Source: Dehalococcoidia bacterium
GTDB lineage: Bacteria; Chloroflexota; Dehalococcoidia; Lucifugimonadales; VXLM01
Direction of reading: 5' to 3'
Assembly: GCA_965232435.1 (NCBI GenBank)
Contig: CBDDPU010000004.1
Location: 2,172,423-2,236,422 of the forward strand
Length of the DNA stretch: 64,000 nucleotides
The position numbers and the translations under genes were made by a program. A model generated the notes under the pieces. That model did no database searches. It was not told the DNA's origin and saw only the letters and a list, made by a program, of their open reading frames with translations. Positions 46,217 to 58,198 of the stretch are shown in pieces (the first letter of the stretch is position 1; each line of letters starts with the position of its first letter).

Positions 46217-47890
46217 CTACACCGTCCCGTCGATAACCACGTCCAGCACAGCCGGCTTACCCGACGCGAGGGCGCTGTCGATCTCCGGGGCAATGTCCGC
46301 CGGGTCCTCAATTTTCCGCCCGCGCACACCCATCGCCTCAGCGATGCCTGCAATATCGAACGGTATCGGAAAGTCCATTCCAATATACTTGCTCACCGGG
46401 TTTTCTTGTCCCTCGATCAGTGTCTTATACGCGTTCATATTGATCTTGAGCACCCGATAAGCTCCATTGTTGCAGATCACATACACCACCGGAATATCGT
46501 AGACCGCCGCAGTCCAAAGGCCCTGAACCGTCATCATCGCGCTGCCGTCGCCCAAAATGCCCACGACCGGCCGATCTGGATGCGCCAACTTGACTCCGAG
46601 CGTCCCACCCATTCCCCATCCGAGGGCCCCGCCCCTCCCCGCATAAAAGCTCTGCGGCTCCTCGAACCGGAACGCTTGATGAACCGCTTCCCGCGCCGTT
46701 ACCGAATCGTCTGCGATAATGGCGTCTTCCGGCACGGCCTGCGCGATCTCGAACGCCATTCGTTCTCTTGTCATCGGCGAATCGTTCCACCGGGCGCAAA
46801 GCTGCCGTTCCCACGCCGAGCGACGCGCTTTCGTTTCTTCCTCAAGCACCGCGGCCCTACCCTTCGCGGCCTCTCGTGCGCTGCCGGACATTCCGGCGTC
46901 CAACGCCTCGGCGAGATCGGACAGCGTGACCTTAGGATCCACCACGATCCCAACTTCCGTCCTCTGCGTCGTCCCAACCTGCGTCGGGTCGGTGTCCACG
47001 TGGATCAATTTCGTATTCGGCCCGAAGTAGTCCAGGCGCGGCTTCGAGAACATGTAGTACCCCGTCGCCATCTTGCCTACAAGCAGCACAGCATCCGCCC
47101 TGTTCAGCGTCTCCTCCGCCTCAGGATATGCCAGGCGAATCGGTCCGAAAAACTGCGGGTGGCTCTCCGGGAAGTTGAACTCCGAGTGCATGATCGTCGT
47201 GTGGACGGGACATCCCAGCAGTTCAGCGACTTGCACGGCCTCGTCAGACGCTCCTGACTGAGCGATCCGGTCGCTAATGATCATGAGCGGATTGGACGCC
47301 CCGGCCAGGATGCCAGCCGCCTTCTCTATTGCCTGATTATCCGGCGCGGTTCGATGGTAGCCCTCAGGTGACGCAAAGATGTCCACGTCGGCCTCGTTAT
47401 CCATTGAGTTCGCCGAAAATCCCACGAATGTCGGCCCCGTCGGCGGCGTCCTCGCCTCGTTGAACGCCCTGCGCAGAAAGAACGGCACCTGCTCGGGATA
47501 CGTGGCCTCCGCAGTCCATTTCGTGAACTGCCCAACCATCGCCGCCAAATCCGTCCGCTCGTGGGCCAGTTCCCGGATATCCTTGTTCCCCGCCGTGACC
47601 ACCATCGGAGACCCGCCCTCGCGTGCGTTGTGCAGCAGGCTGATGGCATTCGCGAGGCCTGTCTCGATGTGCAGGTTGAGAAACGACGGCTTCCCCGCTG
47701 CCCGCCCATAGGAATCAGCCATCCCGACCGCGACACCCTCCTGCGTCACCAACACGTACTCCAGGTCAGGATAACCCTCGATCGCGTCCATCATCGCGCT
47801 CTCACTCGTCCCCGGATTCCCAAAGACGTACTTAACCCCCTCCGCCCGAAGCATCTCCATCATCGCGCGCTTACCGCTCATCACTGTCAT
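46217..47890 (-). CDS. Thiamine-pyrophosphate-dependent enzyme (acetolactate synthase/benzoylformate decarboxylase family)
   Basis: Start trimmed to the ATG at 47890 (GGAG SD). GVKYVFGNPGTSE and GDGSAMM...L.TA......V.NNG.Y (TPP-binding motif). Confidence 0.8.
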   Translation of the reverse strand: MTVMSGKRAMMEMLRAEGVKYVFGNPGTSESAMMDAIEGYPDLEYVLVTQEGVAVGMADSYGRAAGKPSFLNLHIETGLANAISLLHNAREGGSPMVVTAGNKDIRELAHERTDLAAMVGQFTKWTAEATYPEQVPFFLRRAFNEARTPPTGPTFVGFSANSMDNEADVDIFASPEGYHRTAPDNQAIEKAAGILAGASNPLMIISDRIAQSGASDEAVQVAELLGCPVHTTIMHSEFNFPESHPQFFGPIRLAYPEAEETLNRADAVLLVGKMATGYYMFSKPRLDYFGPNTKLIHVDTDPTQVGTTQRTEVGIVVDPKVTLSDLAEALDAGMSGSAREAAKGRAAVLEEETKARRSAWERQLCARWNDSPMTRERMAFEIAQAVPEDAIIADDSVTAREAVHQAFRFEEPQSFYAGRGGALGWGMGGTLGVKLAHPDRPVVGILGDGSAMMTVQGLWTAAVYDIPVVYVICNNGAYRVLKINMNAYKTLIEGQENPVSKYIGMDFPIPFDIAGIAEAMGVRGRKIEDPADIAPEIDSALASGKPAVLDVVIDGTV

Positions 47891-48067
47891 ACGAACGTTA
47901 CTCCATTCGGCAAATTGATCCACCGTCAATCTTCTGTCGGCGAATCTGGAGATCCCTTTAAGAATGAACTGTGGCCCAATGCTACCACAGCGGATGCCCT
48001 CATGCCCCCTCCCTTTACCCCACAACCCCCGTGTGGCACACTGCGTCCCCAACGGAGGCCACCCAGT

Positions 48068-49486
48068 ATGACAATTGAAATCGGAACGACCCCACAGCTC
48101 TTCATCGACGACCTGATAATCGACGATACTCACGCTCTCACGACCACTCTGCACCAACCCGCCAAATACGCAGGCAACCCCGTCATGTCCCCACTCTACC
48201 CTTGGGAAGGACGGCTCGCCCTCTACGGCACGGTCTGGAGAAACGAGGAAACCGGTCGCTTTCGCATGTGGTATCAGGGCTATGGCGGCATGGGCATCCC
48301 TCGCATGGGCGACGACACCAGCGACTCCCCATGGAGAGGCTTCGACGCTCGCAACCTCCTCTATACCATCGGCTACGCCACCTCAAACGACGGCGTCTTT
48401 TGGGAACGACCAAATCTCGGCCTCGTCGAGTATGAAGGCTCCCGTGACACCAATCTCGTAATGCTGGACGCCGCGTACGCCAACATCATAGAAGACCCGC
48501 GCGATCCCGACCCCGACCGCCTCTACAAATCACTCTTCTTCGAGGCACGCGACCCCGCCGGCACTCCAAACATGGGCGACGGCGTCTCCGTAGCCTTCTC
48601 CCCCGACGGCCTCCGCTGGACAAAGTACCACGGCAACCCTGTCATCACTCGGTCGAGCGACTCGCACACCCTACTCGGCTGGGACGATCTTCACGGCAAA
48701 TACGTCTCCTTCGCCCGTCCCTCCGTCCATGAAGGAAACAAAACACGACGAATTGGCCGCTCCACTAGCGACGACTTTACGAACTGGACCGTCCCGGAGG
48801 ACGTGCTCGCTCCCGACGATGAGGACCCTCCCGGCCTCGAGTTCTACGGTATGCCCGTATTCAAATACCAGGATCTCTATATCGGCCAGCTCCTCGCCTA
48901 CCACACGCCGCCGGAGGAACCGCAGATTAGGTTCATGGGCACTATCGACGTTCAACTCGCTGCCAGCCGCGATGGCATTGACTGGCAGCGAGTTGGCGAC
49001 AGAAAGCCGTTTATACCGAATGGACCGCCCGGAAGCATCGACACCGGCGAAATATACATGGCCCGAAGCCCTGTCGTCGTCAATGATGAACTCTGGTTCT
49101 ACTATTCGGTTTGCGCACTCGAACACGGCATTACCGGACGCAGCGGCCCCCTCTGCTTGGCTAAACTGAGGCTCGACGGCTTTGTCTCCATGGATGCAGG
49201 CGGCGAGATGGGCGCCCTCATAACCCAGCCCTTCCGAGTGGACGGCGACGAACTCTCGATCAACGTCGCGGCGCGCGGCGGCTCCGTCGCCGCTGCCGTC
49301 CTTGACGAGCATGGAATACAGTACGAAGGCTTTTCACGAGCCGACTGCGCTCTGTTCGATGGCGACTCGGTAAACCACCGCCTCACCTGGCGCACCAAGA
49401 CTTCCCTCGAAGAACTGCGAGGCCGTCCCGCAAGGCTCAAGTTCTACTTGCGCAACGCCCAGTTGTACTCCTTTTCGGTAAGCTGA
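48068..49486 (+). CDS. Hypothetical protein, GH32/GH43-like beta-propeller plus beta-sandwich (paralog of 11169-12548)
   Basis: Start trimmed to MTIEIGTTPQLFIDD. PWEG, FRMWYQGYG, ATSNDGVFWERPNLG and a C-terminal LRLDGFVS block. Confidence 0.4.
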   Translation: MTIEIGTTPQLFIDDLIIDDTHALTTTLHQPAKYAGNPVMSPLYPWEGRLALYGTVWRNEETGRFRMWYQGYGGMGIPRMGDDTSDSPWRGFDARNLLYTIGYATSNDGVFWERPNLGLVEYEGSRDTNLVMLDAAYANIIEDPRDPDPDRLYKSLFFEARDPAGTPNMGDGVSVAFSPDGLRWTKYHGNPVITRSSDSHTLLGWDDLHGKYVSFARPSVHEGNKTRRIGRSTSDDFTNWTVPEDVLAPDDEDPPGLEFYGMPVFKYQDLYIGQLLAYHTPPEEPQIRFMGTIDVQLAASRDGIDWQRVGDRKPFIPNGPPGSIDTGEIYMARSPVVVNDELWFYYSVCALEHGITGRSGPLCLAKLRLDGFVSMDAGGEMGALITQPFRVDGDELSINVAARGGSVAAAVLDEHGIQYEGFSRADCALFDGDSVNHRLTWRTKTSLEELRGRPARLKFYLRNAQLYSFSVS

Positions 49487-50562: not shown

Positions 50563-51369
50563 ATGAACATCACCGAATTCACCATCGATTCGCGAGGCGA
50601 GGAAGTCGACTGCTGGCTCGTTTCTCCCGATCCCTCAAAGACCGGCGATCGCTCCGCCTTGCTTCTGAACATCAGCGCCACGCGACAATTCGCCATCCAC
50701 GACCCGGGGCAGAACCACCCGACAAAGCCGTTCTTGGATGCCGGCCACCACGTCCTCACCTTCGATCTCCCTCACCACGGCGACAGAAGCATCAGAGACC
50801 TCATTGAGAACGTCCCGCCTGGCGCGGCGAATGGGAACATCAGGGCGATGAGCAAAGCCTTCACTGCCGGCAGTGACCCCTTCCAGCAGTTCATCGCCGA
50901 CGGAAAAGCAGCCATCGATGGTTGCCTCGAAAGAGGTTGGGCAGGAAATGGCATGATCGTCGGATACGGCGTGTCAAGGGCAGCCTACTGTCTCCTCCGC
51001 CTTGCCGCAACCGAACCTCGCGTTCGGGCCGTAGCCGGTCTATCGCCCGTCACGGATTGGGCAATCCTGCCCGAGTTTGCCGATCACGCCGACTCGACCC
51101 AGACTTCTCAATTGCACATCGAGAATTGGAGTGAGCAACTGGCCGACCGAGCCGTCTATTTTGCTATCGGCAGCCAAGACGATATCGTGAGTACCGAAAC
51201 TTGCGTCCGTTTCGCAATGAAGCTCTTCGACCTACAGCGAAGGGTTCTTCCAAAACGCACCTTGCTTAATCAACTCCACGTCGTCGACACTCCCTCCCAC
51301 TCTCCCAGCCTCCATTGGCGACTTGACGCCACCCGCTTCCTGTTGGATTTTTGCGATACGGCACGATGA
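50563..51369 (+). CDS. Alpha/beta hydrolase fold protein (dienelactone hydrolase/S9-like)
   Basis: Candidate nucleophile elbow GYGVSRA, acid in GSQDDIV and His in TPSHSP. The weak motifs keep confidence modest. Confidence 0.5.
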   Translation: MNITEFTIDSRGEEVDCWLVSPDPSKTGDRSALLLNISATRQFAIHDPGQNHPTKPFLDAGHHVLTFDLPHHGDRSIRDLIENVPPGAANGNIRAMSKAFTAGSDPFQQFIADGKAAIDGCLERGWAGNGMIVGYGVSRAAYCLLRLAATEPRVRAVAGLSPVTDWAILPEFADHADSTQTSQLHIENWSEQLADRAVYFAIGSQDDIVSTETCVRFAMKLFDLQRRVLPKRTLLNQLHVVDTPSHSPSLHWRLDATRFLLDFCDTAR

Positions 51370-51672
51370 GAAAGTGAGCGCCGGTTCATTCGATGCGGCA
51401 ACCTGTGAGCCATTTAGATTTTGTCCGGATGTCGCGCCAAGATGACATTCGCTCCCCTCATCAATCCGGTTAACGGCTTCAACACTCCTCAATGATGCAT
51501 AACCTACCTATTGAGCGATGCGGCCGCATTGGATCTTACGGACGAGGGGTCTATTTTAACCTGACATTTTCGGACACGCCTCTTTCAGCTGGGCGGTTTC
51601 ATCGGTCCGAACCGGGTGTTGCACTAGAATAGAATGCATGTTCATTTCGCTGGCCCGTTGAGCGTCAATTGC

Positions 51673-51701
51673 TTGATTCCCATACTCGAAAATACTAAGA
51701 T
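51673..51701 (+). promoter_or_regulatory. Candidate promoter TTGATT-17 nt-TAAGAT for the Cache-repeat lipoprotein gene
   Basis: Hexamers with a 17-nt spacer, 83 nt upstream of the ATG at 51784. Confidence 0.3.
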
Positions 51702-51783
51702 GTTTACAGGTGGCTCTATGATACTGTTTCTCACTTACGAGCCGCCGCTTCAGCGTTGCGTAGCGTTACCAAGGAGACTCCTC

Positions 51784-53958
51784 ATGATCGAAAAGCCATG
51801 TATGACAGTTGCGGCAGCTATCCTGTCCATTGTTGCAGGCGCGTTGCTGGTCGCCTGCGGGGATGATGGTCTCTCCCGTTCGGACGTTCAGCAAATCGTG
51901 CAGTCCGAGATAGCAAACATCCCCACCCCCGTACCTCAAGAAACCTCTCGTGAGCAAATAGAAGAAATCGTACAGGAACTCATGGTTGAGGATCCTGACG
52001 AGGAGACATCCGACGGCGCGGACATATTCATACCCCGCAAGTCGTCTCCCGACCAATACACGCAATACCTTGTTAACGAGGCCATCGATATGTATGAGTC
52101 CGAAGGCCTTGATGCGACCGTCGCCTACTACAACACCAACGACAGCATCGACGGCCAATGGTACGTGTTCATCTCCGACGAGGATGACATCATAGTCGCC
52201 CATGCCGCAAACCCCGACCTCGTCAACCGGCCCGCCTCTTCCGTCACCGGCCCCAATGAATTTCCTAGCGGCGCGGCCGTCGCCGCGGCCGCCGACGAAG
52301 ATGGCGAATGGCTCTCATACACCTTCACTAACCCCGCCACCGGCGGATCGGAGACCAAGCACTCATGGCTTGTGCGTTACGATGGGCTCCTCTTTGGATC
52401 GGGATGGTATGAACCAGGGCCCAGCAAATCCGATGCCCCTGCCTATACGCAATCATTCGTCCAACAGTCCATTAACCTCTACGATGCCGTCGGCCTAGAA
52501 GAAACCGTCGCCTACTACAACCGCAAGGAGAGCATCGACGGCCAATGGTACGTGTTCATCTCCGACGAGGATGACATCATAATCGCTCATGCCGCAAACC
52601 CCGAACTCGTCAACACAGCCGCCTCTTCCGTCACCGGCCCCAATGAATTTCCTAGCGGCGCGGCCGTCGCCGCGGTCGCCGACGAAGATGGCGAATGGCT
52701 CTCATACACCTTCACTAACCCCGCCACCGGCGGATCGGAGACCAAGCACTCATGGCTTGTGCGTTACGATGGGCTCCTCTTTGGATCGGGCTGGTATGAA
52801 CCAGGTCCTAGCAAATCCGATGCCCCTGCCTATACGCAATCATTCGTCCAACAGTCCATTAACCTCTACGATGCCGTCGGCCTAGAAGAAACCGTCGCCT
52901 ACTACAACCGCAAGGAGAGCATCGACGGCCAATGGTACGTGTTCATCTCCGACGAGGATGACATCATAATCGCCCATGCCGCAAACCCCGACCTGGTCAA
53001 CACAGCCGCCTCTTCCGTCACAGGCCCCAACGAATTTCCTAGCGGCGCGGCCGTCGCCGCAGTCGCCGACGAAGATGGCGAATGGCTCTCATACACCTTC
53101 ACTAACCCCGCCACCGGCGGATCGGAGACCAAGCACTCATGGCTTGTGCGTTACGATGGGCTCCTCTTTGGATCGGGATGGTATGAACCAGGGCCTAGCA
53201 AATCCGATGCCCCTGCCTATACGCAATCATTCGTCCAACAGTCCATTAACCTCTACGATGCCGTCGGCCTAGAAGAAACCGTCGCCTACTACAACCGCAA
53301 GGAGAGCATCGACGGCCAGTGGTATGTGTTCATCATCGACGAGGACGACTTCATAATCGCTCATGCCGCAATCCCGGATCTCGTCAACCGCCCTGCCTCC
53401 TACGCCACCGGCCCCAACGACTACCCCACCGGCGCGGCTGTCGCCGCAGTGGCCGACGAAGATGGCGAATGGTTCTCATACACCTACCCCAACCCCGCCA
53501 CCGGCGGAGTTGAGACCAAACACTCGTGGACCGTGCGATACGACGGAATCATCTTTGGATCGGGATGGTATGAACCAGGGCCCAGCAAATCCGATGCGCC
53601 GGCTTACACCCAGTCACTCGTAACGCAAGGTATCAGCCTCTATGGGGCCCTCGGACTTGACGCTGCGATTGAATATTACAGTTCCGAGGAGAGCCGAGAC
53701 GGTCCTTGGTACGTGTTCATCATCGGTGAGGACGGATACACGGTTGCGCACCCCAACCCCATGTTTATCGGGCGGGATCCAAGCCTGCGGATAGACGCCG
53801 CCGGCTACTTCTACGGCGACGACTTGCTCGGTGCCACGGAAAACGGCCGATGGATCCACTACGTACTGGAAAACCCCGCATCGGAACAGGACCGACAGAA
53901 ACACAGCTGGATTGTGTTCCACGATGGGTTCTACTTCGGCTCCGGCTGGTACGAGTAG
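51784..53958 (+). CDS. Lipoprotein with five tandem single-Cache (PDC-fold)-like domains and no output domain
   Basis: Start at the ATG at 51784 (AAGGAG 7 nt upstream). Signal peptide plus lipobox LVAC. Five 129-aa units each carry DGQWYVF..DED..I.AHA..P.LV, G.....A......DEDGEW.SYT..NPATGG.ETKHSW.VRYDG..FGSGWY. Confidence 0.6.
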   Translation: MIEKPCMTVAAAILSIVAGALLVACGDDGLSRSDVQQIVQSEIANIPTPVPQETSREQIEEIVQELMVEDPDEETSDGADIFIPRKSSPDQYTQYLVNEAIDMYESEGLDATVAYYNTNDSIDGQWYVFISDEDDIIVAHAANPDLVNRPASSVTGPNEFPSGAAVAAAADEDGEWLSYTFTNPATGGSETKHSWLVRYDGLLFGSGWYEPGPSKSDAPAYTQSFVQQSINLYDAVGLEETVAYYNRKESIDGQWYVFISDEDDIIIAHAANPELVNTAASSVTGPNEFPSGAAVAAVADEDGEWLSYTFTNPATGGSETKHSWLVRYDGLLFGSGWYEPGPSKSDAPAYTQSFVQQSINLYDAVGLEETVAYYNRKESIDGQWYVFISDEDDIIIAHAANPDLVNTAASSVTGPNEFPSGAAVAAVADEDGEWLSYTFTNPATGGSETKHSWLVRYDGLLFGSGWYEPGPSKSDAPAYTQSFVQQSINLYDAVGLEETVAYYNRKESIDGQWYVFIIDEDDFIIAHAAIPDLVNRPASYATGPNDYPTGAAVAAVADEDGEWFSYTYPNPATGGVETKHSWTVRYDGIIFGSGWYEPGPSKSDAPAYTQSLVTQGISLYGALGLDAAIEYYSSEESRDGPWYVFIIGEDGYTVAHPNPMFIGRDPSLRIDAAGYFYGDDLLGATENGRWIHYVLENPASEQDRQKHSWIVFHDGFYFGSGWYE
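52054..53958 (+). repeat. Five in-frame tandem repeats of 387 bp (units start at 52054, 52441, 52828, 53215, 53602)
   Basis: Exact 387-nt phase between equivalent codons. Units 2 and 3 differ at about 8 positions by eye. The alternative-frame ORFs in the supplied track recur with the same period. Confidence 0.9.
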
Positions 53959-56899: not shown

Positions 56900-58198
56900 T
56901 TATTGGGAAGGCAAGTCACCGGTCGACGGCTCAGGGCGTTTGGAGCCGCGCCAAATTCGGGAAATTGGAATCAGGGCTAAAAGACCCGCTTCAAACAGGA
57001 AATACCCCAACATGGCGCCATTGCTGATGCGCTCGATACGCTCAGGAGAAGAGAAGGTCGAGCCTCCGAAAGTGCTGCCGGGAGGCTTCGGAGCGGTGGA
57101 AGGGTGGTTCCCGACAACGTGAGATCGAAATCGTTCCCCAACGTCGCCCAAATGTCCCGACCTCTTCCGCGCGCGGAACCACGCGAACAATGCGGCGAGT
57201 GTCGGTAATACAGATGCCGCAGCCACGATCATTATAGCCTCAAAGAAGAAGCCGCGGGGGAAAAGCCTGAGGATTGCTTCTGACGGTCTTCTCACGACCC
57301 CCTGAGATCGAGAGATCGCGCGCGCTTCGCTTAAGGTCTCTGATCTTTTCCGTGCGACGAGCCAGGCCAGCAATGCGGCGAGTATCTGCAAAATCGAGGC
57401 CGCAGCTACGATCATCACCGCCTCAAAGAAAAACCCGTCCGGGAAAACCCTCAAGACGAAAATGGCAGCCGCAAAAACCGCGAGAGTCTGGACAGCAGTC
57501 AGTATGAAGAACGAGGAAGCGGAGAGACGCTTGAGAATCAACATTGAAATACAGAGGAGCCATATTCCTTGGGTTACCGTCAAGGCGGCGAGCGCCATCG
57601 TCGCGTCAAAGAAAAAGCCCTCAGGGAACATCGCGATAAGGAAGTCGCGAGCCGGGTCGAGTTGCCACAGGTCATTGGTGAACGCGATGACGTGAAAAAA
57701 ATAGAACGTCTGGCTGAATCCTGTAAGCGATAAGAAACCGGCTAAAAGGACGATGCTCAATGTCAGCGCCGCGCCCCACCCAACAAGCTTGAAGAGCGTG
57801 CGATGAAAGGATTGAGGAGCAAAGGCGAGCCCGGCCGGAATGAACAACAGAATAAAGAAACCCGCAATAAACTCGACGTTGTACAGCGTGCGGATGAGCA
57901 CCTTCACATCCCACATGTGCAGTATCTCTGTGGTGTTGTAAAGAGGCGACAACTCGCCGCCAATTCTGACCCTGACGTCAAGCCAGCGTTCCTCATTGTT
58001 GAAATAATCACGGATTTGCTTGCCGGCTTTGACAAGTTCGCTTCGTTCAATCCCCGTTACGGCTTCGATCTCATATTGGTCAAAGCCGTAGTCGTAGAGG
58101 AGAGGCGTGTTTACCAACAGACGAAGGTTCGTCGTGATGAGGAACAGCGGAACGGCAATAACGAACGCCGTGTAAGCTATGGCTCTAACGATGGACAT
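56900..58198 (-). CDS. TIGR01906/DUF1461-like integral membrane protein with a triplicated C-terminal module
   Basis: The N-terminal third (TTN.RLL.N.P.LY.YGFD.Y) resembles TIGR01906. FP[EDR]GFFF[DE]A recurs at aa 191, 252 and 313 (61-aa period). Confidence 0.5.
   Translation of the reverse strand: MSIVRAIAYTAFVIAVPLFLITTNLRLLVNTPLLYDYGFDQYEIEAVTGIERSELVKAGKQIRDYFNNEERWLDVRVRIGGELSPLYNTTEILHMWDVKVLIRTLYNVEFIAGFFILLFIPAGLAFAPQSFHRTLFKLVGWGAALTLSIVLLAGFLSLTGFSQTFYFFHVIAFTNDLWQLDPARDFLIAMFPEGFFFDATMALAALTVTQGIWLLCISMLILKRLSASSFFILTAVQTLAVFAAAIFVLRVFPDGFFFEAVMIVAAASILQILAALLAWLVARKRSETLSEARAISRSQGVVRRPSEAILRLFPRGFFFEAIMIVAAASVLPTLAALFAWFRARKRSGHLGDVGERFRSHVVGNHPSTAPKPPGSTFGGSTFSSPERIERISNGAMLGYFLFEAGLLALIPISRIWRGSKRPEPSTGDLPSQ

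Follow-up and report, generated by a model that had tools for sequence, protein, structure and literature searches.

What does a sensory domain do in a protein that has nothing to signal with? The question is raised by a gene in a 64,000-nucleotide stretch from a Dehalococcoidia bacterium (Chloroflexota; GenBank assembly GCA_965232435.1, contig CBDDPU010000004.1, positions 2,172,423 to 2,236,422 of the forward strand), here called the window. The open reading frame (ORF) at window positions 51784-53958 on the forward strand encodes a protein of 724 amino acids that consists of a signal peptide, an acidic stalk and five tandem units, and a preliminary description of the letters had taken each unit for a single-Cache/PDC domain. 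No extracellular sensor domain is commoner in prokaryotes than Cache, which is almost always wired to a signalling output. More than 90% of Cache domains are joined to signalling modules in one protein, and forms that stand alone are highly unusual (bioRxiv 10.64898/2026.02.01.703092). The protein considered here has no transmembrane or cytoplasmic part and therefore cannot signal by itself, and it is on balance probable that it serves as a non-signalling, lipid-anchored, multivalent surface binder that captures or retains carboxylate-bearing ligands.

The repetitive architecture is clear at both the nucleotide and the protein level. Tandem Repeats Finder reports one array, at 52117-53597, with a period of 387, 3.8 copies, 93% matches, 0% indels and a score of 2520, and a hidden Markov model (HMM) of family units resolves the protein into exactly five domains (amino acids 82-209, 210-338, 339-467, 468-596 and 597-723), in agreement with the earlier claim of five tandem units on a 387-bp period behind a lipobox and an acidic linker. 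By the boundaries of this HMM, unit 1 lies at 52027..52410, unit 2 at 52411..52797, unit 3 at 52798..53184, unit 4 at 53185..53571 and unit 5 (amino acids 597-724 and the stop codon) at 53572..53958, all on the forward strand; nucleotide comparisons between units use the starts given in the preliminary description (52054, 52441, 52828, 53215 and 53602). Units 1 to 4 are of one kind, here type A, and unit 5, the conserved membrane-distal cap, is of another, type B. Units 2 and 3 differ at exactly 8 of 387 nucleotides, the number previously estimated by eye, in seven synonymous codons and one non-synonymous codon (one amino acid). Between units 1 and 2 there are 42 nucleotide differences, 31 of them within the first 90, so that the reported near-identity of unit 1 to units 2 and 3 over the 3' part stands, and unit 4, an older copy, differs from units 2 and 3 at 47-48 nucleotides, all past nucleotide 104. 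Unit 5 is 10 amino acids shorter, with 44-51% protein identity to the type A units of its own protein in the HMM alignment and 73-75% identity to the terminal units of other proteins. The two types differ mainly in the segment from H60 to G94, whose equivalent in the chemoreceptor domain PscD builds the pocket walls: type A reads ...AHAANPDLV...GPNEFPSGAAVAAVADEDGEW... and type B ...AHPNPMFIGRDPSLRIDAAGYFYGDDLLGATENGRW.... The last, membrane-distal unit is of type B in most homologues.

That the units adopt the Cache fold is supported by profile and model alike. A search against Cache profiles, which the preliminary description had proposed as a check, matches the whole protein to sCache_2 (PF17200) with an E-value of 1.2e-34 and 119.9 bits over five stretches; taken singly, units 1 to 5 score 26.5, 30.6, 29.5, 25.7 and 26.9 bits, so that every unit passes the curated gathering cut-off of 25 bits, if narrowly, and the units match only profile positions of about 47-125 of 155. 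Structure prediction, likewise proposed, was carried out with AlphaFold 2 (AF2) for unit 3 from an alignment of 61 diverse family units, which also served as the source of a search profile; the model has a mean predicted local distance difference test score (pLDDT) of 95.1 and a predicted template-modelling score (pTM) of 0.89, and shows helices at residues 9-27 and 29-36 followed by a beta-sheet. In a Foldseek search of the PDB its best match is VP0354 (4EXO/2QHK; E 3.1e-8, TM-score 0.71), followed by PscD (5G4Y), TlpB (3UB6-9) and Adeh_3718 (4K08), the top matches all being sCache_2 domains, and the profile from the same alignment recovers TlpB, PscD and Adeh_3718 from sequence (6e-6 to 2e-5). 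With every unit above the family cut-off and a model that resembles solved sCache_2 domains, the proposed single-Cache/PDC identity is upheld. An AF2 model of units 3-5 reaches a pLDDT of 95.0 and a pTM of 0.89; as this pTM is high for three domains, the model implies that these units have a defined, stiff arrangement in place of that of flexible beads on a string. Foldseek with the three-unit model returned no multi-domain structural precedent: single domains superpose, with a query-normalised TM-score of at most 0.29.

Comparison with chemoreceptor domains whose ligands are known bears on what the units might bind. In PscD, Tyr90, His103, Tyr143 and Lys156 hydrogen-bond the carboxylate of propionate, Trp92 and Trp145 sandwich the ligand carboxylate, and Phe126 forms the back wall (PMC5062169). 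In the HMMER alignment the tetrad maps to Y47, H60, Y99 and K112 of the unit, and Trp92, Trp145 and Phe126 map to F49, F101 and G83. The comparison of pocket residues across units finds the Tyr/His/Tyr/Lys tetrad in 5/5 units here and in 459/505 (91%) family units, the latter being the non-redundant units of the 120 best homologues, on which the pocket counts are based. Given this retention, the pockets look functional from their residues. They do not look identical to those of the C2/C3-acid sensors. The full seven-residue pocket that restricts ligands to C2/C3 acids, in which the tetrad is joined by Trp92, Trp145 and Phe126, belongs to sensors of the PscD/McpP/Adeh_3718 type; here Trp92 is replaced by Phe, Trp145 by Phe, Tyr or Leu (Tyr in unit 4 of this protein) and Phe126 by Gly. 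Consequently, ligand specificity probably differs from that of the C2/C3-acid sensors, and the Gly in place of the back-wall Phe suggests room for a larger ligand. This Gly83 occurs in 492/505 family units, and it and His113 are near-invariant among them.

The N-terminus is that of a lipoprotein. The longest open frame is 51634-53958 on the forward strand, and the start at 51784, which had been chosen earlier, lies within it; AGGAG at 51772-51776 sits 7 nucleotides before the ATG at 51784, and this start puts the lipobox cysteine at residue 25, the same place as in orthologues and homologues. The database gene call is a protein of 746 amino acids from an in-frame ATG at 51718, 22 codons before the start that is preceded by the Shine-Dalgarno sequence (window 51718-51783). 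Since this extension would bury the signal peptide, the public call is probably too long, with its start mis-set. From 51784 the N-terminus reads MIEKPCMTVAAAILSIVAGALLVAC, then GDD. The lipoprotein signal peptide MIEKPCMTVAAAILSIVAGALLVA together with the cysteine occupies 51784..51858 on the forward strand (Cys25 codon 51856-51858), and the lipobox LVAC fits the pattern [LVI][ASTVI][GAS]C; the cysteine is kept in homologues, and in an alignment of 30 three-unit homologues Ala-Cys is at least 90% conserved. Both Lgt (PF01790, 168.6 bits) and LspA (PF01252, 121.2 bits) are encoded in the genome, which together with the lipobox sustains the lipoprotein assignment made previously. The stalk (amino acids 26-81, 56 residues; 51859..52026, forward strand) holds two copies of an acidic motif of about 20 amino acids, S(R)xDVxxIVxSEIAxIPxP (S..DV..IV.SEIA.IP.P), which matches no Pfam family and is present in 2-5 copies in the homologues P0014 and P0018. 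The collagen-like GXY stalk of many homologues is not found in this protein (P0001) by PF01391. If, as is assumed for the phylum in general, the envelope has a single membrane, a protein anchored in this way would lie on the cell surface.

Neither a transmembrane segment nor an output domain exists in the ORF, which ends after unit 5 and in which Pfam finds Cache models only, and no signalling output domain is found in 120 homologues; on this point the preliminary description was right. The protein ends in GSGWYE before its stop codon, as homologues do, and the next gene is convergent and 37 nucleotides away, so that no output domain has been lost at the 3' end. Might the output reside in another protein? 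No MCP signalling domain (MCPsignal, methyl-accepting chemotaxis protein) is found in the genome, which rules out a chemoreceptor partner. When flanking ORFs were clustered at 84 homologue loci, the commonest family occurred at just 9, so that a conserved operon partner is ruled out as well (at most 9/84 loci for any flanking family), and no transporter recurs beside array genes across the 84 loci. A NaChBac-like Ion_trans/PKD_channel gene lies directly upstream of a three-unit array gene at 8/84 loci (e.g., L015 4921-5739); in the genome studied 373 kb separate the channel (G000:C4:1850816-1851622) from the array gene, and next after the channel comes a DUF4349/PKD-domain protein. An ion channel was rejected as a general partner, given its presence at only 8/84 loci and the distance here. 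As an aside, this adjacency of channel and array echoes that of the eukaryotic alpha2-delta alongside CaV channels.

The protein belongs to a large and variable family. A word-indexed search returns more than 1,075 relatives of 425-1,150 amino acids, in which Cache models account for most of the precomputed Pfam hits; only a few bear a name, and it is then "cache domain-containing" or "hypothetical" protein. When 1.84 billion representatives, a library of protein clusters at 50% identity, were searched exhaustively with a profile, 4,016 proteins matched at E <=1e-3 and 368 at E <=1e-30. The comparison of repeat numbers among relatives, which had been suggested at the outset, gives 3 (38 proteins), 4 (32), 5 (26), 6 (15), 7 (6) or 8 (3) units in the best 120 and arrays of 2-16 units in the top 150 of the profile search, with 1-16 units among relatives overall. 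Homologues are anchored or raised on a lipobox with the acidic mini-repeat, a lipobox with collagen-like GXY, or an N-terminal transmembrane helix with a long coiled coil. Fusions are rare. Among members checked with extra domains the partners are Laminin_G with Ig, LRR, PPC, 5'-nucleotidase, and subtilase with PPC and RCC1, all of them extracellular binding or hydrolytic modules, and kinase, MCP and GGDEF fusions are absent from the same members. The fused relatives (P0151, P0225, P0132, P0222 and P0176) are metagenomic, and some of their modules are 'eukaryote-like'. All 80 of 80 named loci are Dehalococcoidia/Chloroflexota metagenome-assembled genomes (MAGs), many of them chromosome-level assemblies, and several carry bin names (SB06xx_bin, APA_bin, COS3_bin, RHO3_bin) that we take to be of the sponge-metagenome type; the source bacterium is probably sponge-associated. 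Distribution is patchy, with the unit in 34/301 genomes and 9/172 genera of an even sample of the phylum and in 25/41 genomes of a sample of the order. A literature search found no paper on tandem sCache_2 lipoproteins that lack an output, nor any linking Cache domains with sponge Chloroflexi.

The genome itself (3.37 Mb in 4 contigs, one of them 3.07 Mb) holds nine units of this type and no more, divided between two genes. The second gene, at G000:C4:2805595-2807388 on the reverse strand, encodes 597 amino acids with the lipobox LVSC, four units and no output; it belongs to the same unit family (38% identity), and the two genes co-occur in the same genomes. When its translation is read by eye, not aligned, units 2 and 3 keep the Tyr/His/Tyr/Lys residues and units 1 and 4 are degenerate. 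It is divergent from a Xan_ur_permease (NCS2-type) gene, with 611 nucleotides between them (G000:C4:2805595-2809732; L099 4595-8736), and this divergent pairing is found in 12/12 genomes that hold an orthologous permease (at least 72% identity). Because the permease stands beside the paralogue-type array in all twelve, at least one branch of the family is tied to solute transport. An IS66 transposase and a BNR/sialidase-like gene also lie near this pair. The two subfamilies share the unit family, the lipobox and the absence of an output, but the paralogue is a fixed four-unit cassette with degenerate units, always beside the permease, whereas the gene studied here has a variable copy number, intact pockets throughout and no fixed neighbour.

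How did the array reach its present length? Units 4 and 5 had been described as progressively more diverged from the others; both are indeed diverged, but the pattern is a mosaic. Over their first 104 nucleotides units 2 and 3 match unit 4 exactly and depart from unit 1 at 31 positions, and over nucleotides 105-387 they differ from unit 1 at 11 positions versus 47-48 from unit 4. A hybrid of the 5' part of unit 4 and the 3' part of unit 1 fits with 11 mismatches versus 42 and 48 for single parents, and the breakpoint falls at unit nucleotides 90-104 (about window 52530-52545 in unit 2). Such hybrids are what unequal crossing-over between the pair of type A units in an A-A-B gene should produce. 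Units 1-4 are 71-99% identical among themselves and at most 79% identical to any unit elsewhere, and the nearest matches to unit 5 are units at the end of other proteins. Most orthologues in the same genus are ORFs of three-unit size or smaller (335-545 amino acids), the exception being one of 900 amino acids (G012), and the closest three-unit proteins (e.g., P0068, P0071) share their N-terminus with this protein. We infer that a three-unit A-A-B ancestor would have expanded to A-A-A-A-B, unequal crossing-over having made the hybrid unit and a subsequent duplication having copied it as units 2 and 3. Further, variants common to units 1, 3 and 4 against unit 2 are scattered through the array, which suggests extra patches of gene conversion in these sequences. 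A unit pair at least 95% identical is held by 41/120 homologues, which indicates that unit duplication recurs across the family; arrays of this kind may thus grow and shrink through in-frame unequal crossing-over between 387-bp units. The earlier suspicion of recent duplication or concerted evolution is supported by the mosaic and by the spread of unit numbers in the best homologues and in the wider library.

Taken together, the acidic stalk would carry a stiff array of four type A modules with one type B module at the membrane-distal end, and the pocket of each would hold a carboxylate group as in chemoreceptor sensor domains. The array would then capture or retain carboxylate compounds, either dissolved organic acids or host-derived acids, which may be passed to carriers. 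The architecture, the fold, the conservation of pocket residues, the lack of an output, the unit mosaic and the distribution of the family are shown; ligand class, surface exposure, capture and the direction of expansion are inferred, and several points weigh against this account. Tyr, His and Lys at these positions are conserved throughout sCache_2 as a whole, and TlpB, which retains some of them, nevertheless binds urea (PMC5062169), so that the tetrad speaks for a working pocket without pointing to one particular ligand. This gene has no transporter or partner gene next to it. The placement on the surface depends on an assumed single-membrane envelope. Finally, the high pTM, the variable repeats, the stalks and the adhesion-type fusions fit an adhesin or coat protein equally well.

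An adhesin or matrix binder, an unlikely reading, would use avidity to bind polymeric polyanions in sponge matrix or in the polysaccharides of biofilms, for example through the carboxylates of uronic or sialic acids, and would anchor the cell, not gather nutrients. Unit numbers of 1-16 in relatives, collagen-like or coiled-coil stalks in homologues, LRR, Ig and Laminin_G among the fusion partners, the stiff multi-domain geometry that is predicted, the patchy distribution over 9/172 genera and the sponge-type names of many relatives' MAGs, which are names of relatives and not the habitat of this genome, are all compatible with such a role; however, the pocket is of a small-molecule type, enclosed by the tetrad, and the permease-tied paralogous subfamily points to solutes. 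That same pairing with a membrane permease can be turned to the support of a co-receptor, in which the ligand-loaded array docks on a separate membrane sensor (a histidine or Ser/Thr kinase) or a transporter and relays a signal. Cache domains are sensor modules in more than 90% of known cases (bioRxiv 10.64898/2026.02.01.703092), and solute-binding proteins can feed sensors (PMC8050422). Yet no partner gene is conserved across the 84 loci, the genome lacks chemoreceptors, and a freely variable unit number suits a defined docking complex poorly, which makes this role distinctly improbable.

In a purely structural envelope protein the Cache fold would be a mere building block, such as a spacer or coat, that binds no ligand; the rigid array is modelled at high confidence, and the gene stands alone behind a long 5' region. 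A long 5' region and a stand-alone gene are seen in abundant surface proteins. That 91% of units keep the complete tetrad, with Gly83 and His113 near-invariant, is nonetheless unexpected of idle pockets, and the degenerate units of the paralogue, as read by eye, suggest that loss is possible under relaxed selection; a purely structural role is accordingly given very little credence. Least probable of all is that the count of five is an artefact of assembly and the number of units really larger or smaller. Assemblers can collapse or expand near-identical repeats of 387 bp, such as units 2 and 3 with their 98% identity, but no two units differ at fewer than 8 positions, the reading frame runs on across the junctions, and 3.37 Mb in 4 contigs including one of 3.07 Mb is what long-read assembly typically yields; relatives assembled independently, moreover, show 3-8 units, with pairs of at least 95% identity in 41/120. 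Beyond the capture of carboxylate-bearing ligands by this one protein, a wider proposal can be made, possible though doubtful, that output-less arrays are an undescribed class of prokaryotic surface device, the Cache-fold counterpart of solute-binding proteins; the free-standing array of variable copy number would act as a lipid-anchored antenna that concentrates carboxylate-rich organic matter, dissolved or host-derived, on the surface of SAR202-type Dehalococcoidia. Such an antenna would feed secondary carriers in trans, for example the NCS2-type permeases tied to the four-unit paralogue, and its valency would be tuned over short evolutionary times by unequal crossing-over.

Several known systems provide points of comparison. 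The sCache_2 domains of chemoreceptors (PscD 5G4Y, McpP, Adeh_3718 4K08, VP0354 4EXO/2QHK, H. pylori TlpB 3UB6-9) have the same Pfam family and fold and share with the units the carboxylate Tyr/His/Tyr/Lys positions. In chemoreceptors, however, the domain is single, lies between two transmembrane helices and drives a cytoplasmic signalling domain, whereas here a lipid anchor carries five tandem copies that lead to no output, the N-terminus has a shorter helix that forms a hairpin, and the sandwiching Trp residues have become Phe/Tyr and the back-wall Phe has become Gly. A working analogy for capture is offered by the lipid-anchored or tandem substrate-binding domains of Gram-positive ABC importers such as GlnPQ, an importer with two fused binding domains, which are likewise extracytoplasmic, membrane-tethered, multi-copy and non-signalling. 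Those domains have the Venus-flytrap fold and are fused to the transporter or encoded beside it; the protein described here differs from ABC, TRAP and TTT binding proteins in its Cache fold and in the absence of an adjacent transporter. Foldseek of the three-unit model also matches alpha2-delta/Cachd1 entries (6JP5_F and 8S7C_A), which are eukaryotic proteins with several extracellular Cache domains; they have no enzymatic output and act by association, and alpha2-delta is, moreover, lipid-anchored. These carry dCache_1 modules and a VWA domain, the similarity is of single domains only (TM-score <=0.2 over the array), and no channel gene lies beside the array here. The haem-binding sCache proteins (DUF3365/Tll0287; bioRxiv 10.64898/2026.02.01.703092) are, as here, Cache proteins without a signalling output, but they are single domains with covalent c-type haem (CXXCH) and proposed redox roles, and the tandem units lack the CXXCH motif.

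The non-coding region before the gene (51370..51783, forward strand), with the ribosome-binding site AGGAG at 51772-51776, is 414 nucleotides long, close to the roughly 410 that had been remarked upon as unusual, but nothing special could be shown for it. Its GC content is 50% versus 57% for the window. A search of Rfam yields no family, just a sub-threshold chance match on the opposite strand, and a riboswitch or leader RNA was rejected on this basis; a sigma-70 consensus is not found in it, terminator-like sites are at chance level, and blastn against 93 orthologous loci gives no DNA similarity. Long upstream gaps are present at three homologous loci too. The neighbouring genes encode a 7-bladed lactonase, a 268-aa protein, a convergent xylose-isomerase-like TIM-barrel protein, a methyltransferase, a bicupin and a Lit-family protein; neither a transporter nor a sensor is among them, and the nearest 3 kb contain no transporter. 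Across the genus the gene order changes, and only one genome (G002) has the TIM-barrel gene nearby. The 268-aa ORF (50563-51369, forward strand) has no Pfam match and is found at 68-80% identity in 14/15 other genomes of the genus. Also without a Pfam match is a 641-aa ORF (47561-49486, forward strand) that overlaps the 5' end of an ORF for a thiamine-pyrophosphate (TPP) enzyme on the opposite strand (46217-48157), and one ORF of this pair probably starts further in. The Lit-family protein (56900-58198, reverse strand; 432 amino acids) matches Lit, the lipoprotein intramolecular transacylase, over its first ~196 amino acids, and its C-terminal half has no match.

The implications extend beyond a single gene. 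The family reuses the Cache sensor domain without an output, in tandem arrays of up to 16 units, and it seems to have turned a sensor domain into a binding or capture device whose copy number is changed by recombination. The gene described here is a clean natural example of the evolution of domain number by unequal crossing-over. If organic-acid capture is indeed what these arrays perform, they would represent a new type of binding protein, one that would bear on the acquisition of dissolved organic matter by uncultured Chloroflexota, many of them with sponge-type MAG names.

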